A stretch of DNA of 64,000 nucleotides from an uncultured Collinsella sp. (GCA_900544935.1 UQXB01000002.1:4110-68109), one strand, 5' to 3'; positions 1,257-29,603 are shown, counted from the stretch's first letter. The notes: generated by a model not told the origin, from the sequence alone. Made by a program: numbers and translations.

Positions 1257-1404
1257 GCCGGACGCAGGGTCCAGACCCCAGACGGAGCTTAAATTGAATG
1301 TCGCCCACCTGCGCGTGCTACACTAGCAGCATCTATGCCACCGCGAACGGCTCGGCCCCGCGCCCGCCGCTCGCAAACGAACTTTAAACGCACGAGGGTT
1401 GGCC

Positions 1405-3258
1405 ATGCCGCTTTTCTCGCAACATACCGCCCGGTTCTCGCCGGACGTTCCTTTGGAGGGCACCAGCTCTCGCGAGCTGCTCAAGCGGTACCAGCCGCTC
1501 GAGACACTTGCGACCGGCGGTTTTGGCTCCATCGAGATCTGCCGCGACACGCACCTGCGCCGCCGCGTCGCCATTAAGCGCATCCCCCTTATTAACGGTG
1601 TCGGCATGCCCGCCAGCGACATCATGGATGTCCTGCGCGAGGCGCACACTGCCGCCATGCTTCAACATCCCAACATCGTGCAGGTCATCGACTTTACGCA
1701 CGACACAGCCTATGCCTACCTGGTTATGGAATATGTCGATGGCATGTCGCTGGCCGAGTTTTTGCACCGCGTGGACGGTCACTCACTTACCTTTGACGAG
1801 GCCGCGGCCATTGCCGATGCCCTAGGCCAGGCGCTCACCTTCGCCCATAGTAATGGCGTACTCCACCTGGACATTAAGCCCGCCAACGTGCTCATCGACC
1901 ACTCGGGCAATGTAAAGCTCACCGACTTTGGCATGGCGCGACTGTCGTCCGCCGGTGGCTTTGGCGGCTCGCGCGGCGGCACCATCGGCTACATGCCGCC
2001 CGAGCAGCTCGATATCGAGACCGGCACGGTCGATGAGCGCGCCGATGTCTTTGCCCTCGCCTGTGTAATCTATGAGGGCCTGTGCGGCAGCGCTCCCTTT
2101 ATGGCGGCCACGCCCGCCGACTCGCTCGACCGCATCATCGGCGGCGCCACCTATCCCAGCGAGCTGATACCACACTTTCCCCCGGGAGCCGAGGCCGCGC
2201 TCATGAGCGCGCTCTCCCCCATGCCGCAGGACCGCCCCAGCAGCATCGAGGCATTTTGCGACCAGCTCCTTGCCGGTCTGGGCAGCGTACGCGAGGGCCG
2301 TCGCAGCCTGGAACAAATGGTTGGCGAGCTTTCGGATGACGAGCAGGAGCTCGACGATATCGAGCCGTCGCACTACGAGGACGAAGCCATCGAGGTCGAC
2401 CCCGCACTTGGCTGGGCGGGCACGCGCTGGAGCCATGCGCGCGACTACACCATGCGCGCTATCTCGGCGCTAACGTGCGGCACCTTTAGCTTTTTGCTGA
2501 TGCAAACGGCCGGGGTCGCGGCGCTTCCCGGCTTGGTCATTGCGGCCATCGCGATCGGAGCGGCGGCTGGCCTGGCCCCCCAGATTGGCTCGGCCATCTC
2601 GGCTGTGGGCTTTTTGGTGCTCATGGCCAACGCCACCATGCAGGCGCAGGGCATCCTGTCGATGCTGCCGGTCGCGGTGATCTTTGCCGCTGCCATGTCC
2701 GGTTGGTGGATCGCCTGGGGTCGCACCGAGGCTGCCGCGAGCGCCGCGCTCACCTGTGCACTCGCGCTTGGCTGTCTGACCGGCAATACCTTCCTGGCAG
2801 CTGGGGTCGCCGGCGGCGTCGCGTCATTTTGGCTCGGCCCGGCAAGCGCCGCCGCGGCAACGGGCATGGGCGCGCTTTTTGCCCGTCTGGCCACGGTCGC
2901 GCTTTCAGCCGGAGGCGTGCTGGGGCTCGGTAACGTTGCCGCAGCGCTGGGAGACCCGCTCCTTTGGGCTGCCTTTGGGCTAGTCGCGGCAACTGCCGCA
3001 GCGTCATCCGCGCTGCTCAATGCCCATGCCAAGCGTGCCGATCAGGGCTCAAACCTTGCCGCAATCGCCGCCATCGCTGTCACCGGCATCGGCTGCGCAG
3101 CGGCGTCCTGTCTTGCACACCATATGGAAATTGCCAGCCTTGCAGCCGCGGTCGTCGCCAAGGCGGCGGTTGCGGGAACCCTATCCTCTATAATCGTTGG
3201 GATATGCCTATATTTGCTCGGATACCAAAGAACCTATACGGAGAGTGATCTTTCGTGA
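1405..3258 (+). CDS. Ser/Thr protein kinase with polytopic (about 8 TM) Ala/Gly-rich C-terminal membrane domain
   Basis: Hanks kinase motifs: GGFGSIEICRD, AIKRI, HLDIKPANVLID, DFGMA, GYMPPEQ. ATG at 1405 after GAGGG. C-terminal 270 aa form repeated hydrophobic Ala/Gly-rich helices. Stop overlaps the fhaA GTG start (GTGA). Confidence 0.8.
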   Translation: MPLFSQHTARFSPDVPLEGTSSRELLKRYQPLETLATGGFGSIEICRDTHLRRRVAIKRIPLINGVGMPASDIMDVLREAHTAAMLQHPNIVQVIDFTHDTAYAYLVMEYVDGMSLAEFLHRVDGHSLTFDEAAAIADALGQALTFAHSNGVLHLDIKPANVLIDHSGNVKLTDFGMARLSSAGGFGGSRGGTIGYMPPEQLDIETGTVDERADVFALACVIYEGLCGSAPFMAATPADSLDRIIGGATYPSELIPHFPPGAEAALMSALSPMPQDRPSSIEAFCDQLLAGLGSVREGRRSLEQMVGELSDDEQELDDIEPSHYEDEAIEVDPALGWAGTRWSHARDYTMRAISALTCGTFSFLLMQTAGVAALPGLVIAAIAIGAAAGLAPQIGSAISAVGFLVLMANATMQAQGILSMLPVAVIFAAAMSGWWIAWGRTEAAASAALTCALALGCLTGNTFLAAGVAGGVASFWLGPASAAAATGMGALFARLATVALSAGGVLGLGNVAAALGDPLLWAAFGLVAATAAASSALLNAHAKRADQGSNLAAIAAIAVTGIGCAAASCLAHHMEIASLAAAVVAKAAVAGTLSSIIVGICLYLLGYQRTYTESDLS

Positions 3259-4268
3259 ACTTCCTGAACATCTTCGAGGACCACGTGGCCGGCATCTTCG
3301 GTGCCACCCGTGCCCCGTTCTCCTTTAAGAAGCTTGCCAAGCAGGCCGCTCGCGACATGGAGGATCAGACTCTGGTGATCAACGGCGTCAACACGGCGCC
3401 GGCACTCTATACCATCCTTATCGCCGCCGACGACGATCCCATGCTCGCCCCGTTCTACCCCGAGCTTTCGCGCGAGGTCCGCGAGTTTGTGAAGGCGCAG
3501 GCCGAAAAGCGCCGCTATGTCTTTGTCGGCGAGCCCCTCGTGCGCTTTATGATCGATCCGCAGCTGCGCGCCGGCAAGTTCTCGGTCTTTGCCGAGAACG
3601 TCGATGCCCCCACGCTCGGCCGCCTGTACGAAGAAGAGCGCGCCTATCAGAACGGCCTGGGCCAGAACAACTCCGCGGCAAGCCGTGCCGCCAGCGCCCC
3701 GCGCGCCGGCCAGCAGCAGTTTGCTGCCCCGCAGCAGCAGCGCCCCGCCGCCATGCCCCAGCAGCAGCCGACGCCTCGCGCCGCCGCTCCCGACCCGCTT
3801 GCCGTGGCAGACCCCTTCGCGCCTAGCGTCCCCGACCCCGCCGCCGCACCCATCCCGGTGCCGCAGACCGTCTCGCGCGACGCGCTTGCCGGCATGGGCG
3901 GAGCCGCCGCGACCGGTGCCGCCGTGGGCCTAGGCGCCGCAGCCGGCATCGCCTCCAACATGGCGAGCACTCGCGCCCCGCAGCGCCCGCTCGCCCAGCT
4001 CGTCGACGTCGTGAGCGGCGAGAGCCATAGCATCACCTCCGCACAGGTGACCATCGGTCGCGAGCGCTCAGTTTCCGACATTGCCCTGCGCGACCCCAAC
4101 GTGTCGCGCCGCCACGCCCAGCTCACCTTTACGGGCTCGGATTGGTCGATCGAGGACCTCAATTCCACCAACGGCACGCTCGTCAACAACCGCCGCATTA
4201 CGCGCTGCCCGCTGCGCAACGGCGATCTGCTGACGTTTGGCCTGAGCACCTTTGAATTTAGGGGATAG
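3255..4268 (+). CDS. fhaA: FHA-domain protein FhaA (DUF3662 N-domain + Pro/Gln-rich linker + C-terminal FHA)
   Basis: N-terminal MNFLNIFEDHVAGIFG (DUF3662-like). C-terminal FHA core VTIGRERSVSDIALRDPNVSRRHAQL...NSTNGTLVNN. Position directly upstream of fhaB and pstP. Confidence 0.8.
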   Translation: MNFLNIFEDHVAGIFGATRAPFSFKKLAKQAARDMEDQTLVINGVNTAPALYTILIAADDDPMLAPFYPELSREVREFVKAQAEKRRYVFVGEPLVRFMIDPQLRAGKFSVFAENVDAPTLGRLYEEERAYQNGLGQNNSAASRAASAPRAGQQQFAAPQQQRPAAMPQQQPTPRAAAPDPLAVADPFAPSVPDPAAAPIPVPQTVSRDALAGMGGAAATGAAVGLGAAAGIASNMASTRAPQRPLAQLVDVVSGESHSITSAQVTIGRERSVSDIALRDPNVSRRHAQLTFTGSDWSIEDLNSTNGTLVNNRRITRCPLRNGDLLTFGLSTFEFRG

Positions 4269-4274
4269 TCGCTT

Positions 4275-4691
4275 ATGAACATCGATATCGTCCTTTTTGC
4301 AGGCCGCATCGTCCTGGTCGCCCTGCTCTATATCTTCCTGTTCGCCGTCATGAAGACCGGCGTGGGACTTGTGCGCGGGCAGCGCCGCGACTCGGCCATT
4401 TGGACGATCGATGTGGACAAGGGTCCGCGCGGTATCCGCGGCATCCACGTAGACATGCTCGGCCCCGTCATCGTCGGTCGCTCGCCATCTTCGGACATCT
4501 GCATCAACGAACCGTTCGTCTCGGCCTCGCATGCGCGCTTTTCGCTGCAGGGCCCGGCGCTCATCATCGAGGACCTCAACTCGCTTAACGGCACGCTCGT
4601 CAACGGCCGCCAGCTCGTGGAGCCCGCGACGCTGCGTGAGGGCGACGAAGTCCAGATTGGCGATGTGGTCATGAAGGTGAACCGTCGATGA
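4275..4691 (+). CDS. fhaB: membrane-anchored FHA-domain protein FhaB
   Basis: N-terminal TM (IVLFAGRIVLVALLYIFLFAV) followed by FHA domain (IVGRSPSSDICINEPFVSASHARF...NSLNGTLVNG). ATG after GGGGA. Confidence 0.75.
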   Translation: MNIDIVLFAGRIVLVALLYIFLFAVMKTGVGLVRGQRRDSAIWTIDVDKGPRGIRGIHVDMLGPVIVGRSPSSDICINEPFVSASHARFSLQGPALIIEDLNSLNGTLVNGRQLVEPATLREGDEVQIGDVVMKVNRR

Positions 4692-6586
4692 TCGACGAGG
4701 AGAACAAGTCCGCAACCATGCCCGAGACGCCGACTGCACCCGCAGTTGCGCCGGCTCATGCCGCTCCGACGCGCCCTGCGACCGTGGAGCCCGAGGACAC
4801 GGTGTTCTCCCTGCCTCTTTCGCATGTAACTCAAGAATATCCGGCACTCGTCGATGACGAGGACGCCGACACCGAGCAGCTCGATGCCCCCATCGGCGCG
4901 CACGCTGCCGAGCAGCCCGCGGAACCGGAGGCAACGCCCGCACCGGCCCACTTTGCCGAGCCCGTCGCCGAGGCGATCAACGAGAGCGCTACCGTGTTTG
5001 CAGCCCCCGAGCCTGCCGCGCCGGTATTCCCCGTCGCCCCGGCAAGCGAGGCGGCACCCGCATCTGCAACGCCTGCCGAAGTCGAGCAGCCCGTTGCCGC
5101 GCCCGCCGCAGCTCCCGAGTCCTCCGCTCAACCCCAGAGCACGCCTGCGCCGTCGCACTTTGCGACGCCCGAGCCGACGGCTGCCGAGCCGCAGCAGGAC
5201 GGCGATCCCGCCGACCGCGTAACCGAAGATCTCAACCTTCCGGACGTCTCCGACGTCGAGTCGGGAGACGATGCCGACACCGTCTCCCCCGGCGACACCG
5301 CCGAGATCGATGTCGCGGCCGTGGAGGCAAAGCTCAAAGATCCCGGCTCGACCATGAGCTTTGAGCCGCTGACCGACGAGCGCATCGAGACCGACTCGAC
5401 CTACGACGCCGGCACCACCACGCAGCTTATGTGGGGCGCCCGCTCCGACGTCGGATGCGTACGCCCGCACAATGAGGACTCCTATCTGGTGCAGTCGCCG
5501 CTCTTTTGCGTGTGCGACGGCATGGGAGGACACGCCGCCGGCGAGGTGGCATCCTCCATCGCCGTCGAGACCATCGCCAAGACGGCGCCGCAGTCCGCCG
5601 ACGCCGCGCGCCTGGCCGCAGCCGTCGAGGCCGCCAACGCAGCCGTGATCGAGGCCGCCCTCAACGGCCTGGGCAAACCCGGCATGGGATGCACGGCCAC
5701 CTGCGCCTACATCGAAAACGACACGCTCGCCATCGCCCACGTGGGCGACTCGCGCGCCTACCTGCTCCACGAGGGTACGCTCATCCGCGTGACCCGCGAC
5801 CACTCCTACGTGGAGGAGCTCGTGGATGCCGGCGAGATTACGGCCGACGAGGCCCGCGTCCACCCCAACCGCTCGGTCATCACCCGCGCGCTGGGCTCGG
5901 ATCCCGCCATGTATGCCGACCACTTTACCCTGCACATCGAGGAAGGCGACCGCCTGATTCTGTGCTCCGACGGTCTTTCGAGCATGATTCCCGATAGCGA
6001 TATCGAGAACATCGCTACGCAGTCCTCGAGCGCACAGATCTGTGTCGACAACTTGGTGGACGCGGCGCTCGCCGCCGGCGGCCACGACAATGTGACCGTG
6101 GTGGTCGTCGACCTGGTCGACGACGGCGTCATGCGCGAGGCAAAACGCGTCCGACGCCGCAATGTCACCATCGCCACCGTCTTGGCCCTTGTCTTTGTGC
6201 TGGTAGCAGGCATCTGGGCATACACGGGCGTCACTGGCTCCTATTACTTGGGAACCTACCACGGCAATGTCGCCGTCTGGCGCGGCCTGCCCGGCAAGAC
6301 GCTCGGAGTCGAGCTCCACTGGCTCGAGAGCGAAACCAGCATCAAACTGTCCGACCTGCCCGAAGACACGCAAAACCGCCTGAAGGCAGGCATTCCGCAA
6401 ACGAATGTCGACGATGCGCAGGACACCATTTCCAAGTACCGCCATCAGATTGACGAGGAGCAGACCCGTCAGGTGATTGACGCGCAAACGATTCGCGACA
6501 ACACCGATCAGGAATCCACCTCCGAGTCAGATTCCGAGAAAACCGCCGAACAGTCAGCCGAGGCCGAAGCCTCCGATAAGAATTAG
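4688..6586 (+). CDS. pstP: PP2C-family Ser/Thr phosphatase (PstP-like) with about 235-aa Ala/Pro/Glu-rich N-terminal extension, one TM and a C-terminal extracytoplasmic domain
   Basis: PP2C motifs RPHNEDS, CDGMGGHAAGEVAS, GDSRAYL, LCSDGL, GGHDNVTV. TM VTIATVLALVFVLVAGIWAY. ATG overlaps the fhaB stop (ATGA). The long N-terminal low-complexity extension is unusual and the start is uncertain. Confidence 0.8.
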   Translation: MIDEENKSATMPETPTAPAVAPAHAAPTRPATVEPEDTVFSLPLSHVTQEYPALVDDEDADTEQLDAPIGAHAAEQPAEPEATPAPAHFAEPVAEAINESATVFAAPEPAAPVFPVAPASEAAPASATPAEVEQPVAAPAAAPESSAQPQSTPAPSHFATPEPTAAEPQQDGDPADRVTEDLNLPDVSDVESGDDADTVSPGDTAEIDVAAVEAKLKDPGSTMSFEPLTDERIETDSTYDAGTTTQLMWGARSDVGCVRPHNEDSYLVQSPLFCVCDGMGGHAAGEVASSIAVETIAKTAPQSADAARLAAAVEAANAAVIEAALNGLGKPGMGCTATCAYIENDTLAIAHVGDSRAYLLHEGTLIRVTRDHSYVEELVDAGEITADEARVHPNRSVITRALGSDPAMYADHFTLHIEEGDRLILCSDGLSSMIPDSDIENIATQSSSAQICVDNLVDAALAAGGHDNVTVVVVDLVDDGVMREAKRVRRRNVTIATVLALVFVLVAGIWAYTGVTGSYYLGTYHGNVAVWRGLPGKTLGVELHWLESETSIKLSDLPEDTQNRLKAGIPQTNVDDAQDTISKYRHQIDEEQTRQVIDAQTIRDNTDQESTSESDSEKTAEQSAEAEASDKN

Positions 6587-6602
6587 AAAGGGAGTGCCGC
6601 TT

Positions 6603-9473
6603 ATGAGTCGCCGCAACACCGAACTGCTCTTGCTCATCGCCTCGGCGTTCCCCGTCATCCTGCTCTATGCGATGTACGTGCTCACCGCGGGCGCCACGAT
6701 TTCCTTTGAGACGCTCGCCGTGCCGATCGGCCTGTTCGCCGCCTTCGCCGCGGCGCATATCGCCGTGCGCATCCTGGCGCCCGGCGCCGACCCCGCCATC
6801 CTGCCCATCGTCTTTGTGCTCTCGGGCATCGGCATCACATTCGTGACGCGCCTGGCCCCCGACCTCGCCATCTCGCAGCTCATCATCTTGTTTGTCTCGG
6901 TGGCGCTCATGGTGGGAACGCTCGCGCTGGTCAAGAACCTCGATGTGGTCATGCGCTACAAGTACACCTTCGGCATTATCGGCATCATCCTGCTGATGCT
7001 GCCGATCTTTATCGGCACCACGATCTCGGGCTCCAAGCTGTGGATTCGCATCGCGGGCTTCACCATCCAGCCTGGCGAGTTCGCCAAGGTCTTCATCGTC
7101 CTGTTCCTGGCAGGCTATCTGGCCGAGAACCGCGAGCTGCTCTCCATCTCCAACCGCAAGATCCTGGGCCTCAAGATTCCGCGCTTCCGCCTGCTGCTGC
7201 CGCTGTTTGCCGTGTGGGGCGTGTGCCTGCTCATCGTCGTCTTCGAACGCGACCTGGGCTCGGCCGTCCTGTTCTACACCATCTTTTTGCTGATGCTCTA
7301 TGTTGCCACGGGACGCTTTTCGTACGTCATCATCGGCCTTGCGCTGCTGGCCGTTGGAGCCGTGGGCGCCTACAAGTTCCTGTCGCACGTGCAGGTGCGC
7401 TTTCAGGTCTGGGTCGATCCGTTTAAGGACGCCCAGGGCCAAGGCTACCAGATCGTACAGTCACTTTACTCGCTGGCTGACGGCGGCCTGGTTGGCGTCG
7501 GCATTGGCAACGGCATGGCAAACAACATCCCCGTCGTCGAGTCCGACTTTATCTTCTCGGCCATCGGCGAGGAAATGGGCCTTTTGGGCGGCGGCGCCGT
7601 GCTCATCCTGTTTATGCTTTTTGCCGTGCGTGGCCTCACCACGGCCGCCCGCGCCAAGTCCGACCTTGCCGCCTTTAGCGCGACCGGCCTTACGGCGGCC
7701 ATCAGCTTCCAGGCATTCTTAATCGTTGGCGGCGTAACCCGCTTGATTCCGCTGACCGGCGTCACCCTGCCCTTTATGAGCCAGGGCGGCTCCTCGCTGC
7801 TGGCGAGCTTTATCATCGTCGCGCTGCTGCTGCGCGCCGGCGACGAGGCAACCGGACGCGAAGCCGAGCTCACCGGCACCGGCACCATGGCCGCCATCAC
7901 CGATGACCAGGTCGCATCCGCCGCTGCCCCGACCGGTACGCGTTTTGCCAGCGCACCTTCCTACAGCCACGGCAACCACTCCGCGGGTTCTCGCATGCGA
8001 CGTCGCCTGCTCGACACGCCAGAGTCCGGCGTGCTCGGCCGCGTTGCACTTGCCAACCGTCTGACTCGTGCCGTGTTTGCCTTTACGGCGCTGTTCGCCA
8101 TCCTTATCGGCAACCTCACCTATGTCCAGGTCATCAAGGCGAAGGATTACCAGGACATGCCGACCAACAACCACACCATCGCCCGCTCCAAGTACATCCA
8201 GCGTGGCTCCATCATCACGTCCGACGGCGTGACACTAGCCGAGTCGCTGCAACAGGAGGACGGCACCTACGCCCGTTCCTACCCCAACGGCAACATGGCC
8301 GCGCACGTAGTGGGCTACGTGAGCCAGCAATACGGCACCGCCGGCATCGAGAGCGTCATGAACGATACGCTCACCGGCTCCAAGGATTACTCCAGCTGGA
8401 ACAACGCCATCGCGTCGCTCGCGGGACAGACCCAGCCGGGCAATACCGCCAAGCTCACCATCGACTCGCGCATCCAGACGGCTGCCGAGCAGGCGCTCAA
8501 GGGCTTTAAGGGCGCTGTGGTGGTCATGGATCCGCGCACCGGTGCGGTCCTTGCGTGTGCGAGCTCGCCCACCTACGACAACACCAACATCGATGCGCTG
8601 CTCCAGTCGGGCGGCGGCGAGGACGGCTCCATGTACGACCGTGCCATGGACGCGCTGTACACCCCGGGCTCGACCTTTAAGGTCGTCACACTCTCCGCGG
8701 CGCTCGAAACCGGCACCGCCAGCCTTACCAGCACGTACCAGGCGCCCGGCTCCATGGACATCGGCAACGCGCCGGTCACCAACTCTGCCAACGAGAGCTA
8801 CGGCACCATCAGCCTGCAGCAGGCCTTCGCCGTGTCGTCCAACGTCGTCTTTGGCCAGGTGGCCAACGAGGTCGGTGCCAGCTCGCTCGTCCAGTTTGCC
8901 AATGCCTTTGGCTACGGTCAAAAGCTCGGTCAGGATCTGACCACCGCGGCTTCCATCATGGCCGACCCGTCGCTTATGACCGAGTGGGAGACCGCTTGGG
9001 CAGGCGCCGGCCAGCCCGTCGGCATGGACCACACGCCTGGCCCGCAGACCACCGTTATGCAGAATTGCGTGATCGCTGCCGCTATCGCCAACAGCGGCGT
9101 GGTCATGGACCCGTTCTTTGTGTCACAGATACTCGCCCCGGACGGGACCGTGGTTAAGACCACGCAGTCCCGCTCGCTGGGCCAGGCTGTCAGCTCTGCC
9201 ACGGCCGACCAGGTTAAGCAGGCCATGCTCGCCGTCGTCCAGTCCGGTACCGGCACCGATGCCCAGATTCCGGGCGTCAAGGTTGCCGGCAAGACCGGTT
9301 CGGCCGAGACCGGCGGCACCAACGTCAACTCTATGTTTGTTGGCTTTGCACCTTACGATTCACCCACGGTTGCCATCTCGGTGGCCTTGGAGGATTACGA
9401 CAAACACGATGTCGAGGCGGCCAAGATTGCCGGCATCGTCCTGACCGCGGCGCTCGCCGCACAGGGAGCGTGA
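6603..9473 (+). CDS. fused SEDS glycosyltransferase (RodA/FtsW family) and class B penicillin-binding protein transpeptidase (PbpA-like), single 956-aa ORF
   Basis: N-terminal about 410 aa form polytopic SEDS (…IAGFTIQPGEFAKVFIVLFLAGYLAE… PLTGVTLPFMSQGGSSLLAS). A linker follows, then a PBP TM anchor (AVFAFTALFAILIGNLTYV). Then the PBP dimerisation and transpeptidase domains (SxxK-like STFK in YTPGSTFKVVT, SSN, KTGS motifs). No in-frame stop between the domains. Confidence 0.75.
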   Translation: MSRRNTELLLLIASAFPVILLYAMYVLTAGATISFETLAVPIGLFAAFAAAHIAVRILAPGADPAILPIVFVLSGIGITFVTRLAPDLAISQLIILFVSVALMVGTLALVKNLDVVMRYKYTFGIIGIILLMLPIFIGTTISGSKLWIRIAGFTIQPGEFAKVFIVLFLAGYLAENRELLSISNRKILGLKIPRFRLLLPLFAVWGVCLLIVVFERDLGSAVLFYTIFLLMLYVATGRFSYVIIGLALLAVGAVGAYKFLSHVQVRFQVWVDPFKDAQGQGYQIVQSLYSLADGGLVGVGIGNGMANNIPVVESDFIFSAIGEEMGLLGGGAVLILFMLFAVRGLTTAARAKSDLAAFSATGLTAAISFQAFLIVGGVTRLIPLTGVTLPFMSQGGSSLLASFIIVALLLRAGDEATGREAELTGTGTMAAITDDQVASAAAPTGTRFASAPSYSHGNHSAGSRMRRRLLDTPESGVLGRVALANRLTRAVFAFTALFAILIGNLTYVQVIKAKDYQDMPTNNHTIARSKYIQRGSIITSDGVTLAESLQQEDGTYARSYPNGNMAAHVVGYVSQQYGTAGIESVMNDTLTGSKDYSSWNNAIASLAGQTQPGNTAKLTIDSRIQTAAEQALKGFKGAVVVMDPRTGAVLACASSPTYDNTNIDALLQSGGGEDGSMYDRAMDALYTPGSTFKVVTLSAALETGTASLTSTYQAPGSMDIGNAPVTNSANESYGTISLQQAFAVSSNVVFGQVANEVGASSLVQFANAFGYGQKLGQDLTTAASIMADPSLMTEWETAWAGAGQPVGMDHTPGPQTTVMQNCVIAAAIANSGVVMDPFFVSQILAPDGTVVKTTQSRSLGQAVSSATADQVKQAMLAVVQSGTGTDAQIPGVKVAGKTGSAETGGTNVNSMFVGFAPYDSPTVAISVALEDYDKHDVEAAKIAGIVLTAALAAQGA

Positions 9474-9605: not shown

Positions 9606-11552
9606 ATGGAACAGAGGGTCCTCGGGGGAAGATACCTCCTCAAGGATAAGGTGGGAACGGGCGGTATGGCGACCGTCTTCCGTGCACAGGATCAGGTCCT
9701 CGACCGCACGGTTGCCGTCAAGATCATGCTGCCGCAGTATGCCGGCGATGCCACCTTCGCCGCCCGCTTTAAGCAGGAGGCCCAGGCAGCTGCCGGCCTG
9801 TCCTCCCCCTATATCGTGGGCGTCTACGACTGGGGCAAGGACGGCGACACCTATTACATCGTCATGGAGTACCTGCGCGGTACCGACCTTAAGAGCGGCA
9901 TCAAGAGCCACGGCGCCCTCGATCCCAAGAAGGTCGCGCAGATCGGCTCGCAGATCAGCTCCGCGCTTTCGGTCGCACACAAGCACGAGATCATCCACCG
10001 CGACATTAAGCCGCAAAACATCATGGTGCTGCCCGACGGCAACATCAAGGTCATGGATTTTGGCATCGCACGCGCCAAGAACAGCCACCTCACGCAGGAT
10101 AACAACGTGCTGGGCACCGCCCACTACGTCAGCCCCGAGCAGACCCGCGGCCAGGACCTCGGCCCCACCTCGGATATCTACTCGCTGGGTGTCGTCATGT
10201 ACGAGTGTGCCACCGGCCGCGTACCCTTTGACGGCGACGACGCCATCTCGGTCGCGCTCAAGCAGGTCAACGAGCTCCCCATCCCGCCGAGCCAGATCAA
10301 CTCCGGCGTCGACGCCGACCTGGAGCGCATCATCCTCAAGTGCATGGAGAAGGACCCGGCAAACCGCTTCCAGACGGCCGACGAGCTGCGCCAGGTGCTC
10401 AACAGCTACCTGTCCGGCCGTGCCGTCAACGTCTCGGAGCCCACGCGCATCATTGGCGCCGCGGGCGACCTGGGCGCTACCAAGACCCGTGAGCTGTCTG
10501 ACTCCACGCGCGCTATGGTTCGCCCCGTATCGGGCGTAAGCGGACAGACCAACCCCCGCAGCGCCGTCTCGGGTTCCACCGGTTCCTACGAGGTCGATCA
10601 GCCCAAGTCCAACAAGAACAAGATTATCGCCGCCGTAGTCGCCGCAATCGCCGTGGTTGGCGTTGTGGTGGCCTTCGCCACCGGGCTCTTTGGGGGCGAG
10701 CAGGTTACGGTGCCCGATGTGCTTAACAAGGACCAGCAGACCGCTATCGAGCTGATCAAGGAGGCCGGCCTTGAGGTCGGAACTGTCGACCAGAGCTATA
10801 ACGACGATGTCGACGAGGGCAAGGTTGCCGAGCAGACCCCCAACGGCAACACTAAGAAGCCCAAGGGCTCCAAGGTGAACCTGGTGATCTCCAAGGGCCC
10901 CAAGCCCTCCGAGAAAGTTGAGGTTCCGCAGCTCGTCGGCCTAACCAAGGACCAGGCCGAGGCCGCGCTGGCAAGCGTGGGCCTGAAGGGCAACGCAACC
11001 GAGGAGGCCAACGAGGCCGACGAAGGCCAGGTCTTTGAGCAGGGCACTGATGCCGGCAAGGAAGTCGAGAAGGGCACGACCATCTCGTATAAGGTCTCCA
11101 GCGGTCCTGACACCACCTCCGTCCCCGATCTGACCGACATGACCGAGGCCCAGGCACGCAACGCTCTCGACATGGCTGGCTTTGGCGTCGACGTGAGCTA
11201 CCAGGAAAACGACTCGGTTACCGAGGGCACCGTAATTAGCTGGAACCCTAGCGGCAAGCAGAAGCCCGGTGCCACGATCACCGTCGTCATCGCCAAGAAG
11301 TCCGGCAAGGCCAGCGTCCCGGGTAACCTGTACGGCAAGAGCATCTCCGCCGCCGTCACCGCGCTCAACAACGCCGGTTTCTACAACATCGCATTCTGCG
11401 ATCAGAACGGCAACCCCGTGAGCGGCAACGAAAACGCCACCGTTACGGGCGTCTCCCCCACCGGCAAGCAGTCCACCGACAGCACGATCACGCTGACGGT
11501 TTCGCTTTCTGGCTCTGCCTCGGGTGACGATTCCGACACGACGACTAACTAG
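9606..11552 (+). CDS. pknB: Ser/Thr protein kinase PknB-type with extracellular PASTA repeats
   Basis: Kinase motifs: VGTGGMATVFRA, AVKIM, HRDIKPQNIMV, DFGIA, HYVSPEQ. TM IIAAVVAAIAVVGVVVAFA. Three to four PASTA-like repeats (…VPDVLNKDQQTAIELIKEAGLEVG…, …VPQLVGLTKDQAEAALASVGL…, …VPDLTDMTEAQARNALDMAGF…). ATG at 9606 after AGGAG. Confidence 0.85.
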   Translation: MEQRVLGGRYLLKDKVGTGGMATVFRAQDQVLDRTVAVKIMLPQYAGDATFAARFKQEAQAAAGLSSPYIVGVYDWGKDGDTYYIVMEYLRGTDLKSGIKSHGALDPKKVAQIGSQISSALSVAHKHEIIHRDIKPQNIMVLPDGNIKVMDFGIARAKNSHLTQDNNVLGTAHYVSPEQTRGQDLGPTSDIYSLGVVMYECATGRVPFDGDDAISVALKQVNELPIPPSQINSGVDADLERIILKCMEKDPANRFQTADELRQVLNSYLSGRAVNVSEPTRIIGAAGDLGATKTRELSDSTRAMVRPVSGVSGQTNPRSAVSGSTGSYEVDQPKSNKNKIIAAVVAAIAVVGVVVAFATGLFGGEQVTVPDVLNKDQQTAIELIKEAGLEVGTVDQSYNDDVDEGKVAEQTPNGNTKKPKGSKVNLVISKGPKPSEKVEVPQLVGLTKDQAEAALASVGLKGNATEEANEADEGQVFEQGTDAGKEVEKGTTISYKVSSGPDTTSVPDLTDMTEAQARNALDMAGFGVDVSYQENDSVTEGTVISWNPSGKQKPGATITVVIAKKSGKASVPGNLYGKSISAAVTALNNAGFYNIAFCDQNGNPVSGNENATVTGVSPTGKQSTDSTITLTVSLSGSASGDDSDTTTN

Positions 11553-11605
11553 TCGACAACCCATCACCTGCAGCGGCTATGGCCGCAAACATATTCGCTC
11601 AACGG

Positions 11606-11643
11606 CGCCCGCTTGCTCCCCAGCAAGCGGGCGCGTTATTTAT
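11606..11643 (+). terminator. rho-independent terminator downstream of pknB
   Basis: GCGCCCGCTTGCT-cccc-AGCAAGCGGGCGC hairpin followed by TTATTTAT. Lies between convergent genes. Confidence 0.6.
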
Positions 11644-21581: not shown

Positions 21582-22829
21582 ATGACAGAACAGCCACTAA
21601 TTAGCGGAAGAGGCACGTGTTGGAAAGACAAGAGATCACCTAACACCTATCGCTATTATTTTTCCCTTGGAGTCAAGGACCCTAAGACGGGGCGCTACAA
21701 ACGATCCCCAACTTATACAGTCCGTTGCAAGACTAAAACAGAAGCTAAGGCTGCAATGCAGGCCAAGCTGGCTGAAATCAACTCCTCTGGCACGATCACT
21801 AAAACTAAAAAGCCCACTTTGCTTGCGTCCTACTGCTGGGCCTTTCATGAAAATAGGGACACCGAGCTTGCGCCAACGAGCTATGAAAGAGAAGCGTACG
21901 ATTGCAGGCATATCGAAGACCTATTCGGTGCGTTTCAGACAATTGAGGGGCTAACTCCCGATCTAATCGAAGAAACATATGCCGAAGCTCGTCGTACGGG
22001 AAAATACAAACCATCAGAGCTTGTACGAATCAATGCGAAACTGCGTCAGATTTTGTCGAATGCAGTCGCAAAGAGAATAATTGACCGAAACCCCTGCGCT
22101 ACCGTTCATGTTCGCAGACCACGCAACAAAAGAGAATCACTGACAATCGACCAAGTAGCTACCCTATGCACACATCTTCAACACATTGAGCTCACCGCCG
22201 AAGCTGTTGGTACACTAGTACTAGTGTATACGGGCATGCGGAAAGGCGAGATGCTGGGCCTCGAATGGCGCGATTGGGACCCTGCCAATAAAACCTTGAA
22301 AATTGACAGGCAGTACACCAACGACCATGAACTGAGGGCACCCAAGTCACAAGAAAGCCAACGCAAAATCCCCGTTGGAGAAACCTTGGCCGAACGTCTT
22401 CAATCATGGTCAGCCATACAAAAAGAGCTCCTGGCCTCTCTGGGGCTGTCCCAGACTGGCAGCACTCCCATCATTAGCGATATTGCTGTCGAGCAAGGGA
22501 TCCCTACTGTCTGTCACATGAAAAACTACATCTTCAACCATTGGTTTCGCGATTTCGCAGTTAGCTGCAATCTTGGAATCTATGAGCCGAACAATTCGAC
22601 TGGCGGAAAACTATATAAGGGCATCTGCCCGCATCAGCTCAGGCATTGTGTAAGCACTTTTATGCTGGCGAACGGATCGGACGTTAGAAGCGTGCAAGGT
22701 ATTCTTGGCCACGCGGACCCCAATATCACGCTCAAAACGTATACAAGCCTCGTTCAACAATCAGAAATAAAAGCAGTTAAAGGCTACGAAGCCTTCATCA
22801 ACGCCTATATACAGAGAAGCGAGAAATAG
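21582..22829 (+). CDS. int: tyrosine-type site-specific integrase
   Basis: C-terminal catalytic region …CPHQLRHCVSTFMLANGSDVRSVQGILGHADPNITLKTYTSL (R-H-R-Y motifs). GGAG RBS. Adjacent to attL. Confidence 0.85.
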   Translation: MTEQPLISGRGTCWKDKRSPNTYRYYFSLGVKDPKTGRYKRSPTYTVRCKTKTEAKAAMQAKLAEINSSGTITKTKKPTLLASYCWAFHENRDTELAPTSYEREAYDCRHIEDLFGAFQTIEGLTPDLIEETYAEARRTGKYKPSELVRINAKLRQILSNAVAKRIIDRNPCATVHVRRPRNKRESLTIDQVATLCTHLQHIELTAEAVGTLVLVYTGMRKGEMLGLEWRDWDPANKTLKIDRQYTNDHELRAPKSQESQRKIPVGETLAERLQSWSAIQKELLASLGLSQTGSTPIISDIAVEQGIPTVCHMKNYIFNHWFRDFAVSCNLGIYEPNNSTGGKLYKGICPHQLRHCVSTFMLANGSDVRSVQGILGHADPNITLKTYTSLVQQSEIKAVKGYEAFINAYIQRSEK

Positions 22830-23047
22830 CATGTTTTTCATTCATCGTTTATTTCATAATATTACGGTACTATAATACCGTTTCCGCAGGTAGATGCTTT
22901 ATTTGATTGACATCTAATGCGTTTTAATACATGCTAAAGCTGTCAGATGGCTACGCATGTAGTCATAGAAACCGGCCCCCCAAGTGCTTATGAACCTGGT
23001 ACGTCTTACAAGCACAGGGAGGGCCCTCATTGAAAGGATAGCTCATC

Positions 23048-23293
23048 ATGGCTACTCCAAAGATTAGCACTCAGGCGTCCACACCGACTTTCCCCACTGG
23101 TGCCGCTCAGTGCGATCGGTTGCTCCGCGTTAACGATATCCGCGAACTCACTGGCTGGAGCGAAAACACCGCACGCAAGTTTATGCGAGAGTCCGGCAAG
23201 CTCATCCAGATCCATCGCTCTAATTACATGTTTGAAAGCTCGTTCTACGAGCTTTTCAAGCAGCTTGAAGGTCGTACCGCCCACCTTGATTAG
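23048..23293 (+). CDS. small HTH DNA-binding protein, excisionase/AlpA-like
   Basis: 81 aa. LLRVNDIRELTGWSENTARKFMRESGKL resembles an MerR/Xis-type HTH. Lies immediately downstream of the integrase. Confidence 0.5.
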   Translation: MATPKISTQASTPTFPTGAAQCDRLLRVNDIRELTGWSENTARKFMRESGKLIQIHRSNYMFESSFYELFKQLEGRTAHLD

Positions 23294-23302
23294 GTGGTAA
23301 AC

Positions 23303-23689
23303 ATGAGCGAGCTTCCGTCGATTTCCGACATATTTAGCGATGATGCTACTGAGCAACGAGAGATTACGGGAAAAATGGATAAGGCTATTTTTATTTCAGT
23401 GCCCGAGTGGGCGTGCTGCGTCACCACCGTTGCCGCCGAGCGTCTCATCCTCGGCCTTGTATGGAAGTTTGGAAAACCTTCCAAAAACAAACGGCCCATG
23501 GGCTTCTGCGCTAAAAGCAAATGGATTGAGGATCACTACCGCCTGAGTAAGAACACGATATCCCGGGCCTATACCTCTCTGAAGGATAAGGGGTATATTC
23601 AAAAAGTTGGTGATGGCAGCTGGATGCTTAATTACGCCGCAATCTACCGCGCCGCGATTGAAAACGCTTGGGAGCCTCCGAAACTTTAA
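23303..23689 (+). CDS. winged-helix DNA-binding protein (replication-initiator / repressor-like)
   Basis: ATG at 23303 with GGTGG 5 nt upstream. C-terminal KNTISRAYTSLKDKGYIQKVGDGSW resembles a wHTH. Function inferred only from fold-like motifs. Confidence 0.4.
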   Translation: MSELPSISDIFSDDATEQREITGKMDKAIFISVPEWACCVTTVAAERLILGLVWKFGKPSKNKRPMGFCAKSKWIEDHYRLSKNTISRAYTSLKDKGYIQKVGDGSWMLNYAAIYRAAIENAWEPPKL

Positions 23690-24141
23690 GCCCACAAACC
23701 GACTATCGAGGTCGTGAGAGTCGGTCACCGTCAGGATGCCCACAAGAACATGCCGCGGATGTAAAATGAAGCAGGGTCGAACCGAAACAGTTCCCGGACA
23801 ATTGGTGTCCGGCCAGACACTTCGATTCGACCCTTTCTCATGCCTGCATCTAAAATACTCCCACAATCATTCTCGACATCTTTAACGCCCTCACCTCCTG
23901 CCACCAACACGTCGTAGACGCTATTTACAACGAATCGATATGGCCGCCCGTTCTTTAAGGCACGTGTTACCATGAAAACGTGCGGTATTTCTCCAACCGA
24001 AAACCTGCGTGAACGCATGACTTGAGACGCCTTTTAGAACTCACCGATCGCAGGGCGAACACAAATCAACAGCGGCCGTGCATTGTTCCCAGCCATATGG
24101 CATGGCGGAGCCATGCCCGTTGTTGATTGGAGTGCCGCACC

Positions 24142-24711
24142 ATGGCAGACGAGAAGAAAATCAGGGAGATCTACGGCGTGAAGTCCGTCCTCGATGAGGC
24201 CGCCGAGCGGATCGAGGCGACGTGGCGGGAGAAGCTGCTGCGCGAGACGGGCGACCTCAGAACCGAGAACGCGTTGCTCAGGGCCCAGCTCGACGAATTC
24301 AACCGCAAGCTCGTCGAGGCGAGAGACCGGAACGAAAGACTTGAGGCCGACTGCAATGAGCGGGTCGCCTTTATCGAGGAGAAGTTCGAACTCGATACCG
24401 CGAGCCTCGAGCTCGAGAACAACGAGCTTCATGCCGCGAGCGTCAGATACCTCGCCGATGCCAGGGAGCTCGACAGGCAGGTCGTCCAGCTCCATGCCGA
24501 GGCCGTGGCCATGGTCGATGAGATCGAGCGCCTGCGCGGCGAGCGTGACGCCGCGCTGAAAGCCCAAGCCGAGTTGAACGACGCACTCCTGGCCCAGCGC
24601 GACCTGATGGCCGAGCTCGCCGCCCTCAAGGACCGCCTTGCCGCCTCCGAGCAGCGGGCGGCCGTGGCCGAGGCCAAGGTCGAGGTCATGACCCAGATGA
24701 AGGACGAGTAG
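24142..24711 (+). CDS. coiled-coil protein, hypothetical
   Basis: Heptad-rich Glu/Arg/Leu sequence with no TM. GGAG 9 nt before ATG. Convergent with the phosphoesterase operon. Confidence 0.45.
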   Translation: MADEKKIREIYGVKSVLDEAAERIEATWREKLLRETGDLRTENALLRAQLDEFNRKLVEARDRNERLEADCNERVAFIEEKFELDTASLELENNELHAASVRYLADARELDRQVVQLHAEAVAMVDEIERLRGERDAALKAQAELNDALLAQRDLMAELAALKDRLAASEQRAAVAEAKVEVMTQMKDE

Positions 24712-24753
24712 CCCCGCGCTTCTCCTGTCAGGCTGCTGATTTCTAGGAATCTT

Positions 24754-25491
24754 CTAGAGCGCTTCCAGAAGGTTCCTAGAACCGGGCGCAGCATCTTCGA
24801 TCGGCACGATGTCTCGGTAGATCAGGCGATGTCTGTCGTCGCGCCATTCGTCGCCGTGATAATGTCCGAAGAACCAGGCTCGGTAGCCGAGCCGCCCGTC
24901 GAGCTCGCCAAGGAATCGTTGCAGCCGGTCGCCTCGATACTCGCGCCCGCGCTCGCGGCACAGCTTCTCTGCCAGGACGGCAGGGGCCTCATGCGTCACC
25001 ACGTAATCGACCCTCCAGCCTACGCGGTCGAGCGAGGAACGGCAGTGGTCCATCTCCTCCTCGCTCGGCATCTCCTCGGGCCACCAGCTCCTCCCCTCCT
25101 TGCGATACTGCCTGTCGTTGCTTGCGGCACCGCCCATGGCAAGGACCGTGAGCCCACCGATGTCGAACACCTCCCCACGCATCAGGTGCAGCACGTGCGG
25201 TCGCGCCTCATGGACGAGCCCACCGTTCCACTCCCGCACCGGCAGTTCTGCCAGGGCGTGGTGGTTCTCATGGTTGCCGTCTACGAAACACGTGGTCCAG
25301 GGCTTCGACTCGAGCCAGTCGAGCCAGTATTTTTCGGCGTTGGACCCATCCCAGACAAAGCCGAAGTCGCCGGCCACGATCACCGCGTCATCGCGCGTCA
25401 GGGTCCGGCCCAGCGGCCAATTTTTGAAAGCAAACCGGCTGGACCCGTACTCGGCCCTGCCGTGCACGTCGCCTGTCACATAGACCGTCAT
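24754..25491 (-). CDS. calcineurin-like metallophosphoesterase (paralog 1 of 3)
   Basis: MTVYVTGDVHG…IVAGDFGF…FVDGNHENHHAL…GHYHGDEW metallophosphatase motifs. ATG overlaps the stop of paralog 2 (ATGA). Confidence 0.7.
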   Translation of the reverse strand: MTVYVTGDVHGRAEYGSSRFAFKNWPLGRTLTRDDAVIVAGDFGFVWDGSNAEKYWLDWLESKPWTTCFVDGNHENHHALAELPVREWNGGLVHEARPHVLHLMRGEVFDIGGLTVLAMGGAASNDRQYRKEGRSWWPEEMPSEEEMDHCRSSLDRVGWRVDYVVTHEAPAVLAEKLCRERGREYRGDRLQRFLGELDGRLGYRAWFFGHYHGDEWRDDRHRLIYRDIVPIEDAAPGSRNLLEAL

Positions 25492-26216
25492 CAGTACGCA
25501 CCCCACGGCAGGAGTTTGCCCCCGAGCCTCACGATCCGGTCATACAGCACCGTGTGCCGTTCGTCCGGATTGCCGTCTCGGTGAAAATGTCCGTAATACC
25601 AGTGCTTATAGTCCAGGCGGTCTTCGAGCTCGTCGAGGAATCCGGTCAGCCGGTCCACATCAGGGCGTTCCCAGCCTGGGTCCGGGTAGAGCGTCGGCGA
25701 GAGCATGCGCGTGGCGCAGGTATGGGTGATGACGCAGTCGACCTTCCAGCCGACCTCGTCGAGCTTTGCCCGCGCGGTATCGAAATCGCGCTCGTCCGGG
25801 AGCTCCTGAGGCCACCAGCTGGAATACGGCACGCGGTATTCCCTGTCCACGCTCGTGGCACCGCCCATGGTGAAGACCGTCGAGCCGTCGAGCTCGAAGA
25901 CCTCCCCGCGCATGAGGCGGCGGATGGACGAAGTATCCGACAGGCGCTGCGTCAGCCCGCCGTGCCACGGCTCCATGGGGCGCTCCTCCCAGTGGTCGAA
26001 GCGCTCGTGGTTGCCGTCGACGAACAGTACCGTGTAGGGGCGCGACTCCAGCCAGGCGATGTCGGCGCATTCCTCGGCAGAGAAGTCCCACGGAAAGCCA
26101 AAGTCGCCGGCAACGATGAGATAGTCGTCGCCGGTAAGGCTATCGCCAAGCTCCCAGTCGCGGAGCTTTTGCATGTCGAGCCCACCGTGGATGTCGCCCG
26201 TCACATAGACCGTCAT
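25491..26216 (-). CDS. calcineurin-like metallophosphoesterase (paralog 2 of 3)
   Basis: MTVYVTGDIHGG…IVAGDFGF…FVDGNHERF…YGHFHRD. N-terminal identity to paralog 1 is clear by eye. ATG overlaps the stop of paralog 3 (ATGA). Confidence 0.7.
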   Translation of the reverse strand: MTVYVTGDIHGGLDMQKLRDWELGDSLTGDDYLIVAGDFGFPWDFSAEECADIAWLESRPYTVLFVDGNHERFDHWEERPMEPWHGGLTQRLSDTSSIRRLMRGEVFELDGSTVFTMGGATSVDREYRVPYSSWWPQELPDERDFDTARAKLDEVGWKVDCVITHTCATRMLSPTLYPDPGWERPDVDRLTGFLDELEDRLDYKHWYYGHFHRDGNPDERHTVLYDRIVRLGGKLLPWGAY

Positions 26217-26851
26217 CGGATCGCCTCTTCCCTCTTGTACGCCGCCAGCTCGCGCTCGACCTGCCTGTCGCCGGTCTCGTTGACCCACCAGGGCCATTTC
26301 ACCCGGCCGCACGGCTCGTCGACTCCGGCGAACCATTCCCTCAGCTCGTCAAGACTCACCGGGGAGTGCCCGTTGGCATCGCAACCGACGTCGTAGCGCA
26401 GAAGGCCCTGCTTGCGGTTGAACCCGTTGTACGCGCCGCCGCTGCTGTGGATGTGCCCGTGGAGGTGCCACGATCCATGGCTCATGCCCTGCCAGTCGGC
26501 CATGGGGTAATGGCTCAGGACGATCTTCTGCCCGTCGATCTTGAGCACGCAGATCGGCGGCTCCACGGTGAAGGCGCCCGCGACCGCCGGCTGGGTCCAG
26601 TCCTTGTCGTGGTTTCCCGGGACGAGGTGGATGCGCCTGCAGGCGATCCGCTTGCGCAGCCCGTAGGCGTCCTGGGCGGTCATCTTGAATGAGAAATCAC
26701 CCAGGATGTAGAGTTCGTCGTCCACGGCAACCCTGCCGTTGATGCTGTCGACGATGGCGTCGTTCATCTGCCAAATCGTCTCCCACGGGCGGTCGGTGAA
26801 CTTCAGCACGTTCTCATGCCCGAAGTGGGTGTCGCTGGTAAACCAGATCAT
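26213..26851 (-). CDS. calcineurin-like metallophosphoesterase (paralog 3 of 3, more divergent)
   Basis: MIWFTSDTHFGH…ILGDFSF…VPGNHD…HLHGHIHSSG. AAGGAG RBS 8 nt before ATG at 26851. First gene of the three-gene operon. Confidence 0.7.
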   Translation of the reverse strand: MIWFTSDTHFGHENVLKFTDRPWETIWQMNDAIVDSINGRVAVDDELYILGDFSFKMTAQDAYGLRKRIACRRIHLVPGNHDKDWTQPAVAGAFTVEPPICVLKIDGQKIVLSHYPMADWQGMSHGSWHLHGHIHSSGGAYNGFNRKQGLLRYDVGCDANGHSPVSLDELREWFAGVDEPCGRVKWPWWVNETGDRQVERELAAYKREEAIR

Positions 26852-27114
26852 ATTTATGTCTCCTTCTGTCGCTAAAAAACGTTCTCCCTCGAGGTCAGGA
26901 GACGTTTTATGAGCGACATGAGGTGCATATCCCTCATGTTTCAAGCTCCAATCTGCCGGATTTGCCCAACTAAAAGTTTACGCCCACGCGCGAACAGGAT
27001 TTGATTTTTGAAATATGGACGAATTCCTCGTCAGGAGGGTAAAATGGTGCCGACGGCAGCCCAAGTTGTAGAGAGCTGGGCAGAGCCGTTGCTTAACGAA
27101 GTTAGGTCATCGTC

Positions 27115-27240
27115 TTAGCGACGGTGGCCTTTCTTTTTGGGCTTCGAACCCTGCTTGAGTGCCTTGGAAAGGCCGACAAGGGCCGTGAGGAGCGAGACCA
27201 TAGCGGTCAGGAGCTTCACGGACTCAGTGAAATCGGTCAT
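27115..27240 (-). CDS. 41-aa hydrophobic mini-protein with basic C-terminal tail (candidate type I toxin / small membrane peptide)
   Basis: GGAGGTG 6 nt upstream of the ATG. Translation MTDFTESVKLLTAMVSLLTALVGLSKALKQGSKPKKKGHRR with TAA stop. Below the ORF-track size cutoff. Confidence 0.4.
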   Translation of the reverse strand: MTDFTESVKLLTAMVSLLTALVGLSKALKQGSKPKKKGHRR

Positions 27241-27427
27241 GGGCATCACCTCCCATCGGATGGAGGACTCTGCCCGGCACGAGAGCTGCCGCCAGCAAGG
27301 ACGATTCTATCAGAGCGGCTGACTCCCGCCGATCAATTCATACTCCTCACCCTCGCCGAATTGCGAGCATGAAAGAATCGGCACTGAATAGCAGCGCGCT
27401 AGGGCACCGACGATAGGCTTTCCAAAA

Positions 27428-29156: not shown

Positions 29157-29516
29157 GATTCCTCCGGAAAACGAATCAGCGATCGGAGAGGCCTCCGATC
29201 AAAACCTGCTATGCGATTCGCTTTCCTTTTAATGAGGAACGGCTGGCGTCGTTCCAAAATGAAGAATCGTCTCCGCGATTCTTCATCGCGAAGTTCCAAC
29301 TTCACGATAACCTTATCGCCGTAGCAGGCGGTAAGCAAGGTCTGTGGCGTGGTGTTTTTGGGGTCCGAATGGGCCCACAAAAATGCCACCCACAGTCATC
29401 TTGCAATCACCGGTACGGCGATTGGGCGGAACGCAGTGTAGACATGGAATAAGAGGCCTCATTCCAAGCGAGATGCCTCGCGTTGTCGAAACGAAAAGTG
29501 AAGACCGTGAGCGGAA

Positions 29517-29603
29517 GCGAACTTTTAACGCGAGGGATGCCGAGTGTTAAGAGTTCGCTGTAGCGAGAGCGAAGCGGTACTGCGAATGCGAGGGATGCCG
29601 AGT
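29517..29603. promoter_or_regulatory. candidate oriT: 13-bp inverted repeat with 16-nt loop plus a direct repeat of the loop sequence
   Basis: GCGAACTTTTAAC-GCGAGGGATGCCGAGT-GTTAAGAGTTCGC at 29517-29558. GCGAGGGATGCCGAGT is repeated at 29588-29603. Lies upstream of mobC. Confidence 0.35.

Follow-up and report, generated by a model that had tools for sequence, protein, structure and literature searches.

The gene at positions 6603-9473 (+ strand) of a stretch of DNA from an uncultured Collinsella sp. (GCA_900544935.1, UQXB01000002.1:4110-68109; 64,000 nucleotides, the whole of which is referred to here as the window) encodes, within one open reading frame (ORF), a SEDS peptidoglycan glycosyltransferase followed by a penicillin-binding protein of class B (bPBP). 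The product is very probably a single-chain bifunctional peptidoglycan synthase, being the form taken in the Coriobacteriia by the actinobacterial RodA-PbpA pair, in this case in Collinsella aerofaciens. A first-pass annotation of the window had presented this covalent SEDS-bPBP fusion as a departure from the actinobacterial norm of separate, adjacent genes. The fusion itself stands, both in its domains and in the continuity of its ORF, whereas the idea of a departure does not, in that the arrangement appears from sequence comparison to be standard in the Coriobacteriia and has already been published.

Architecture of the fused gene

Translation of 6603-9473 gives 956 residues with one terminal stop. 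The longest ORF in the same frame spans 6477-9473 and opens with TTG; the likely start of the gene, however, is the ATG at 6603, since the Shine-Dalgarno-like sequence AAAGGGAG is found 8 nt upstream of it, beginning directly 3' of the stop codon (6584-6586) of the preceding PP2C phosphatase gene. The features of the gene are as follows.

6587-6594, + strand: Shine-Dalgarno-like sequence AAAGGGAG, 5' of the ATG at 6603, read from the sequence
6603-7853, + strand: SEDS (FtsW/RodA/SpoVE) glycosyltransferase domain, residues 1-417, polytopic (Pfam PF01098, 249.7 bits)
7854-8030, + strand: cytoplasmic tether, residues 418-476, assigned from low model confidence, composition, alignment and coding-type polymorphism
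8064-8126, + strand: hydrophobic core of the PBP membrane anchor, residues 488-508 (Kyte-Doolittle peak of 1.99 at 490-508; AlphaFold2 helix)
8202-8444, + strand: PbpA-type 'dimerisation' (pedestal-like) domain, residues 534-614 (Pfam PF21922, 87.7 bits)
8511-9410, + strand: D,D-transpeptidase domain, residues 637-936 (Pfam PF00905, 188 bits)

In terms of individual Pfam matches, FTSW_RODA_SPOVE covers residues 66-414 (E = 5.5e-74), PBP_dimer_2 residues 534-614 (E = 6e-25) and Transpeptidase residues 637-936 (E = 3e-55). From the N- to the C-terminus, therefore, the layout is that of a SEDS glycosyltransferase, a disordered cytoplasmic tether, a transmembrane (TM) anchor and a PbpA-type bPBP, with the catalytic motifs of both enzymes all intact. 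In other words, both domains lie in one uninterrupted ORF with the glycosyltransferase at the N-terminus, which is what defines a natural single-ORF fusion of a SEDS protein to its bPBP, and translation and domain matches together bear out the continuous 956-residue RodA-PbpA frame that had been read at first pass. All of the strings quoted in that reading are also present, with FIIVALLLRAGDEATGRE at residues 402-419, AVFAFTALFAILIGNLTYV at residues 490-508 and MRRRLL reading from the ATG at 7995.

An AlphaFold2 model of the fusion protein, built on an alignment of 39 Coriobacteriia fusions (A3), has a mean predicted local distance difference test score (pLDDT) of 81 and a predicted TM-score of 0.65; both domains and the anchor helix are modelled with confidence, and the tether alone is disordered (pLDDT <50 over residues 418-475). 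The 10-helix SEDS fold, which is predicted to end at about residue 414, is matched by both the hydropathy peaks and the modelled helices. The anchor helix is modelled at residues 477-511 (pLDDT 81-92), such that the PBP does possess a TM anchor of its own around the hydrophobic core at 488-508, and the linker that separates it from the SEDS domain is about 60-70 residues in length, close to the approximately 70 first proposed. The Arg-rich stretches that precede the anchor (SRMRRRLL and GRVALANRLTR) agree with the positive-inside rule. The model is accordingly consistent with the proposed topology, in which the SEDS C-terminus and the PBP N-terminus both face the cytoplasm, and in which the PBP anchor would form an eleventh TM helix.

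The way in which the two proteins are joined can be read from their split relatives. The very N-terminus of a split 480-residue PBP (P0199) aligns to the region just before the anchor of the fusion, so that the N-terminal anchors of the two are aligned with each other, and a split SEDS protein (P0195) has a cytoplasmic C-terminal tail of its own; from these alignments, the fusion consists of the RodA tail joined to the N-terminus of PbpA.

Conservation of the fusion

The simplest objection to a single reading frame is that it is an artefact of sequencing or assembly, with rodA and pbpA being truly separate genes. This has in its favour the prior expectation from Mycobacterium-type clusters, in which the genes are separate, and the occurrence elsewhere of split homologues, of which the closest clear examples are a 462-residue SEDS protein from Ilumatobacteraceae and a 480-residue PBP; no other support for it was found. 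Against it stand 80 related loci, retrieved by a scan of one genome per species, with titles that name Collinsella or Collinsella aerofaciens in almost every case. Over residues 1-956, each of these loci is a match at 97-100% identity, and in all 80, which come from independent isolates and metagenome-assembled genomes (MAGs), the gene is an intact single ORF, 2871 nt long in 75 and 2868 nt in five, a difference of only 3 nt. The indels that occur within the tether in alignments of homologues keep the frame in every case. Moreover, the 80 loci taken together are polymorphic, within the tether (residues 419-476, 58 codons), at 19 first, 10 second and 41 third codon positions, a third-position bias from which it follows that the tether is translated in this frame; on sequence grounds, this is the pattern left in translated DNA when purifying selection on it is relaxed. 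A sequencing error, frameshift or missed stop codon, including a restored stop near 7830-7990, which had been named at first pass as a finding that would refute the fusion, was thus rejected, given that the ORF is intact in every assembly and that the homologues are fused, and there is practically no chance that the continuous frame is artefactual.

One of the 80 loci (L007, CAVCKO010000002.1) carries the title 'Treponemataceae bacterium', although the fusion gene on it agrees at 100% with the Collinsella protein over the best aligned segment; a MAG contig that was mis-binned or given the wrong label is the probable explanation.

Beyond Collinsella, the best 120 database matches of the window protein range from 98% to 74% identity, and all of them have the two domains on the same polypeptide; a single cluster among them comprises 32,607 member sequences. 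A profile built from 16 distant fusions gave 3369 matches at E <= 1e-30, of which the best 120 are all fusions, mostly of about 910 residues, and those that carry an organism name are mostly from Coriobacteriia MAGs. The best 120 matches of the window protein and of the profile are fused proteins of 892-1146 residues, apart from a shorter one of 807 residues that covers 84% of the query. Overall, among the matches listed, full-length homologues are fused throughout the range from 98% to about 36% identity, and the fused ones from the Coriobacteriia, which extend down to about 36-50% identity, number in the hundreds. In an exhaustive HMMER search of 1.84 billion cluster representatives (50%-identity clusters), 93 of the best 150 representatives have at least 790 residues, and nearly all of these, at identities as low as about 28%, match the query in both its halves; some of the fused clusters bear the names Lachnospiraceae and Armatimonadota. 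A crude neighbour-joining tree of the SEDS domains, its tips carrying no taxon names, has fused and split sequences interleaved, with long branches and with 'split' labels that include fragments at contig ends.

Comparison with related loci, which had been proposed as a check on the fusion, finds the same fused gene in the relatives, including one (P0128) whose protein is 40% identical to that of the window and which lies in the same operon. Since the best homologues are fused and the operon order is kept in this distant relative, the fusion is, as judged from sequence, the standard state of the gene across the Coriobacteriia, and it is also found beyond the class. Public databases already name the fused homologues as 'FtsW/FtsI' (JGI) or 'FtsW/RodA/SpoVE family cell cycle protein' (NCBI).

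The tether

The tether is the region in which the Collinsella protein departs from its relatives. Ser, Thr, Gly, Ala and Pro make up 58% of it, and most of it belongs to an insertion that has the conserved sequence SR[ML]RRRLLDTPESG at its end. In the alignment of 39 fusions, the other Coriobacteriia have a short and conserved connection from the last SEDS helix to the anchor, consisting of RAGDEATG (about 8-10 residues) and then GVLGRVAL, with tethers of only about 15-25 residues in all, whereas Collinsella has an Ala-, Gly-, Ser- and Thr-rich insertion, the length of which lies between about 20 and about 90 residues depending on the species. Correspondingly, the distance between the GGSS and RGxI motifs is 135 residues in Collinsella-type proteins as against a median of about 90 in other groups. 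Judged from these alignments, the ancestral tether was short, and its lengthening by an insertion of variable size is specific to Collinsella and is the sole local peculiarity of the gene. The coexistence of short ancestral and long variable tethers means that tether length is not critical. Despite its variation in length, the insertion keeps the sub-motifs GTR[FIV] and GSHARPGSR[LM]RRRLLDTPESG.

A long disordered tether also raises the question of whether RodA and PbpA are in the main produced as two polypeptides from the fused ORF, through translation that starts internally at Met465 (ATG 7995) or through proteolysis in the tether. Consistent with two products are the disorder itself (over about 60 residues in Collinsella), the position of the in-frame ATG at 7995, 12 residues ahead of the start of the anchor helix, and the observation that purified engineered RodA-PBP2 fusions are partly cleaved in the linker (PMC6207328). 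Yet no Shine-Dalgarno-like sequence precedes ATG 7995, and several Collinsella species (P0070, P0100 and P0109) have Leu in place of Met465, a residue whose position is absent from other Coriobacteriia. For these reasons, the internal start at MRRRLL, which had been named at first pass as the alternative origin of the PBP, was rejected. Moreover, that the fusion has been retained throughout a class of bacteria, and in further phyla, speaks for selection on the covalent link as such. Two main products are, in sum, very unlikely, and the gene would be expected to give one polypeptide of about 100 kDa.

As to function, any regulatory role of the insertion is speculative. One such role would be that of a phospho-regulated docking segment, in which the Thr/Ser-rich insertion is phosphorylated by the PASTA kinase of the operon and read by the FHA proteins of the operon, such that Ser/Thr signalling acts directly on the single-chain synthase; this is an unlikely proposal. 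It gains indirect support from an Armatimonadota MAG protein of 1058 residues (P0151), which is a triple fusion of FHA (79-143), SEDS (247-570), PBP_dimer_2 and Transpeptidase domains. By the Rosetta-stone argument, this suggests that FHA domains and the synthase family act together, and it hints at FHA/phospho-Thr signalling that acts directly on the family.

The polymerase half

The match of the SEDS half to PF01098 spans profile positions 13-352 of 356, its score of 249.7 bits comparing with a gathering score of 26.4. The QPxExxK motif is present (Q156, P157, E159 and K162), as is Asp315 within VESDFIF. The SEDS motif residues, including D315 and E159, are invariant in the 39 Coriobacteriia fusions, and these two residues are retained in 94 of 94 aligned fusion proteins. 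On the basis of the motif and of published work on RodA (PMC6207328), D315 is the predicted catalytic Asp, equivalent to D262 of E. coli RodA.

A side observation concerns the more distant fusions, for which the presence of catalytic residues was read out from alignments. In about 20 of the 93 distant representatives, the SEDS catalytic Asp is kept and the SxxK, SxN and KTG residues of the transpeptidase are missing; these include P0163, P0186, P0187, P0197, P0225, P0233, P0240, P0242, P0246, P0256-P0259 and P0266. The proteins that lack the transpeptidase residues form two coherent clades in the SEDS-domain tree, and the six that were scanned still match PF00905, although weakly (51-109 bits as against 165-220 in catalytic ones). 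This suggests that, in some lineages, the polymerase is fused to a PBP-like ectodomain that would be catalytically dead.

The penicillin-binding half and its solved relatives

In the window protein, by contrast with these distant forms, the transpeptidase motifs are complete (S690-T-F-K693, S745-S-N747 and K897-T-G899), and they are invariant in the 39 Coriobacteriia fusions. The succession of PF21922 and PF00905, the three motifs and the single N-terminal anchor together identify a class B PBP of the PbpA subtype.

Close relatives of this half have been solved. The peptidoglycan glycosyltransferase entries of Atopobium parvulum DSM 20469 in the PDB (4JBF, 4N1X, 4QJG, 4R0Q, 4R1G, 4R23, 4R3J and 4RA7, with the organism of 4JBF and 4R1G also given in PMC8602277) are 54% identical to the ectodomain and superpose on the model with target-normalised TM-scores of 0.93-0.96 (0.93 for 4JBF/4R1G); several of their titles describe complexes with beta-lactams, both penicillins and cephalosporins. 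The 'D,D-transpeptidase domain of peptidoglycan glycosyltransferase' of Eggerthella lenta (4MNR) is 43% identical, and its inclusion with the A. parvulum entries gives a range of scores of 0.92-0.96. Outside the Coriobacteriia, the closest solved PBP match is M. tuberculosis PbpA (3UN7/3UPN), at 30% identity and a score of about 0.86. The A. parvulum and E. lenta entries are orthologous extracellular PBP portions, in which the crystallised chains start just after the anchor. Necessarily, since these crystals contain the soluble ectodomain only, without the SEDS half and the tether, they are uninformative about the behaviour of the fusion.

The operon and its surroundings

The genes that surround the fusion, and the terminator-like hairpin that closes the operon, are the following.

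1399-3258, + strand: Ser/Thr kinase without PASTA repeats and with a polytopic, Ala/Gly-rich C-terminal membrane region (Pfam Pkinase, residues 31-285, E = 4e-47)
3255-4268, + strand: fhaA-like gene (Pfam FhaA_N, residues 7-111; C-terminal FHA, residues 265-329)
4275-4691, + strand: fhaB-like gene for a small FHA-domain protein (Pfam FHA, residues 65-129)
4688-6586, + strand: PstP/Stp1-type PP2C Ser/Thr phosphatase, 632 residues (NCBIfam Stp1_PP2C_phos, 250.7 bits against a cut-off of 230; Pfam PP2C)
9606-11552, + strand: PknB-type Ser/Thr kinase (Pfam Pkinase and three PASTA repeats)
11605-11634, + strand: strong intrinsic-terminator-like hairpin (13-bp stem with 10 G-C pairs and a T-rich tail), which closes the operon after pknB

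The cluster opens with the kinase gene at 1399-3258, the stop codon of which overlaps the start of fhaA. In the phosphatase, the catalytic domain occupies residues 253-474 and is preceded, if the ATG at 4688 is the true start, by an N-terminal low-complexity extension of about 250 residues that is rich in Pro, Ala and Glu; this ATG overlaps the stop codon of fhaB (ATGA), which suggests that the long form is real. The pknB ORF opens at ATG 9591, and a second ATG at 9606 has AGGAG 5 nt upstream. No hairpin comparable to that after pknB was found by the terminator scan between the fusion gene and pknB. A sigma-70 promoter scan of the operon returned no sites, such scans being uninformative for this organism.

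The cluster had been equated with the order fhaA-fhaB-pstP-rodA-pbpA-pknA-pknB. The fhaA, fhaB and PP2C genes, the fusion and the PASTA kinase are indeed present in that order, but pknA is missing between the fusion and pknB, and the second kinase of the cluster, which has no PASTA repeats, is found upstream of fhaA instead. The order FhaA, FhaB, PP2C, fusion and PASTA kinase is also that around P0128, and around P0148 the fusion is likewise followed by a PASTA kinase.

Further downstream, the region 21582-33973 contains a tyrosine integrase (21582-22829, + strand), a MobA/VirD2-type relaxase (27428-28693, - strand) and a CAP-domain protein of 1135 residues (30566-33973, - strand), which suggests a mobile element integrated downstream of the cell-wall operon.

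A probable single-chain synthase, and its role in the cell

The proposed mechanism is one in which the N-terminal SEDS domain would polymerise Lipid II into glycan strands by means of Asp315. Its cytoplasmic C-terminal tail would lead, through the disordered tether, into the membrane anchor of the PbpA-type bPBP and, with the anchor as the eleventh TM helix, the pedestal-like and transpeptidase domains (Ser690) would be held outside the membrane above the polymerase. The transpeptidase could then cross-link the nascent strand. Such a covalent fusion would set a 1:1 stoichiometry and guarantee co-assembly of the two activities. The synthase is expected to be co-transcribed with the two FHA proteins, the PP2C phosphatase and the PASTA kinase, and is probably under their control.

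Whether this synthase would serve elongation and shape, in the manner of RodA and PbpA, or septation, in the manner of FtsW and FtsI, is a separate matter. Collinsella cells are short, chain-forming rods, a cell form that would suit a septal role. The scores of the SEDS half also lean towards FtsW, in that it reaches 245 bits with the NCBIfam ftsW model as against 197 with rodA_shape, and, among solved structures, it is matched best by P. aeruginosa FtsW (117 bits), followed by the E. coli and T. thermophilus RodA proteins at 83-91 bits. Conversely, the gene lies between pstP and pknB, where rodA-pbpA is placed in the actinobacterial cluster, and the PBP half carries the PbpA-type PF21922 domain, with M. 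tuberculosis PbpA as its nearest solved counterpart beyond the Coriobacteriia. Furthermore, according to PMC12516126, the related Senegalimassilia faecalis has FtsI/FtsW and MrdA/RodA as separate pairs besides its fusion. A septal synthase is, on balance, a possible but doubtful reading, and the one favoured here is a synthase of the RodA-PbpA type.

Several points count against that assignment and against the proposed synthase more generally. The SEDS half stays below the NCBIfam equivalog cut-offs of both candidate families (rodA_shape, TIGR02210, 196.7 against 336.7; ftsW, TIGR02614, 245.1 against 337.5) and scores higher with the FtsW models than with those of RodA, and the PBP half fails that of pbp2_mrdA (TIGR03423, 268.8 against 455). 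Because these RodA, FtsW and MrdA cut-offs are failed, 'RodA-PbpA' is a synteny-based name, and the elongation role, like the name 'RodA', derives solely from synteny. The Collinsella enzyme is known here from its sequence alone; the packing of its anchor against the SEDS helices is presumed by analogy with solved RodA-PBP2 complexes; and, as the partial cleavage of the engineered fusions (PMC6207328) indicates, its disordered tether could be cut in vivo.

Comparison with known systems

The fusion is already known: it has been published (PMC12516126, PMC10449877), it is annotated in public databases, and ectodomains of the family are in the PDB. As a discovery, therefore, it carries little weight, this being the normal architecture of the gene in the Coriobacteriia. 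Its interest lies rather in that a naturally fused SEDS-bPBP in an abundant gut commensal indicates that cells can grow with the two enzymes coupled covalently at 1:1, and the Collinsella protein could be a convenient natural substrate for structural and biochemical work.

The nearest described system is that of S. faecalis (Coriobacteriales), for which PMC12516126 (Microlife 2025) reports a 931-residue TPase-PBPA_dimer-GTase protein flanked by Ser/Thr kinase and phosphatase genes; the same paper counts 117 SEDS-bPBP chimeras in InterPro, termed putative bifunctional class B synthases. The S. faecalis and Collinsella proteins share the order of FtsW/RodA/SpoVE, PF21922 and PF00905 domains, their class, a similar size and the kinase and phosphatase flanks, and differ in genus and in the Collinsella protein's genus-specific, length-variable tether insertion of about 45 residues. 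Another is the 947-residue SEDS-pedestal-TPase protein of Rhodococcus jostii RHA1, whose genome is cited in PMC10449877 for the existence of single-ORF SEDS-PBP fusions, and which is also cited in PMC12516126. It too is a natural single ORF with the glycosyltransferase N-terminal but it is reported to lie beside mreB, outside an FHA/PP2C/PASTA-kinase operon, and to have a canonical pedestal.

Fusions of the same polarity have also been engineered. E. coli RodA-(GGGS)3-PBP2 brings back the rod shape for the most part, and its polymerisation of Lipid II depends on D262 and is insensitive to moenomycin, the D262A substitution in RodA abolishing the activity of the RodA-linker-PBP2 fusion (PMC6207328); RodA-TSGSGSGS-PBP2 served for cryo-electron microscopy (PMC10449877); and a SpoVE-SpoVD fusion was made in B. 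subtilis (Fay et al. 2010, as cited in PMC6207328 and PMC10449877). Like the natural protein, these constructs join the SEDS C-terminus to the bPBP N-terminus through a short flexible cytoplasmic linker, and they are functional in vivo and active in vitro. They differ in being artificial and in having the canonical PF03717 pedestal in place of the PbpA-type PF21922, and the natural tethers are either shorter and conserved, as in other Coriobacteriia, or, as in Collinsella, much longer.

Finally, in M. tuberculosis, rodA (Rv0017c) and pbpA (Rv0016c) are two separate genes that give separate polypeptides. This pair shares with the Collinsella gene its operon position, its neighbours and its PBP subtype; the differences are that two genes there correspond to one here, and that the Collinsella cluster is without pknA at that position and has an extra non-PASTA kinase upstream. 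In split relatives such as the RodA of Ilumatobacteraceae, the cytoplasmic C-terminal tail of RodA is the counterpart of the tether in the fusion.

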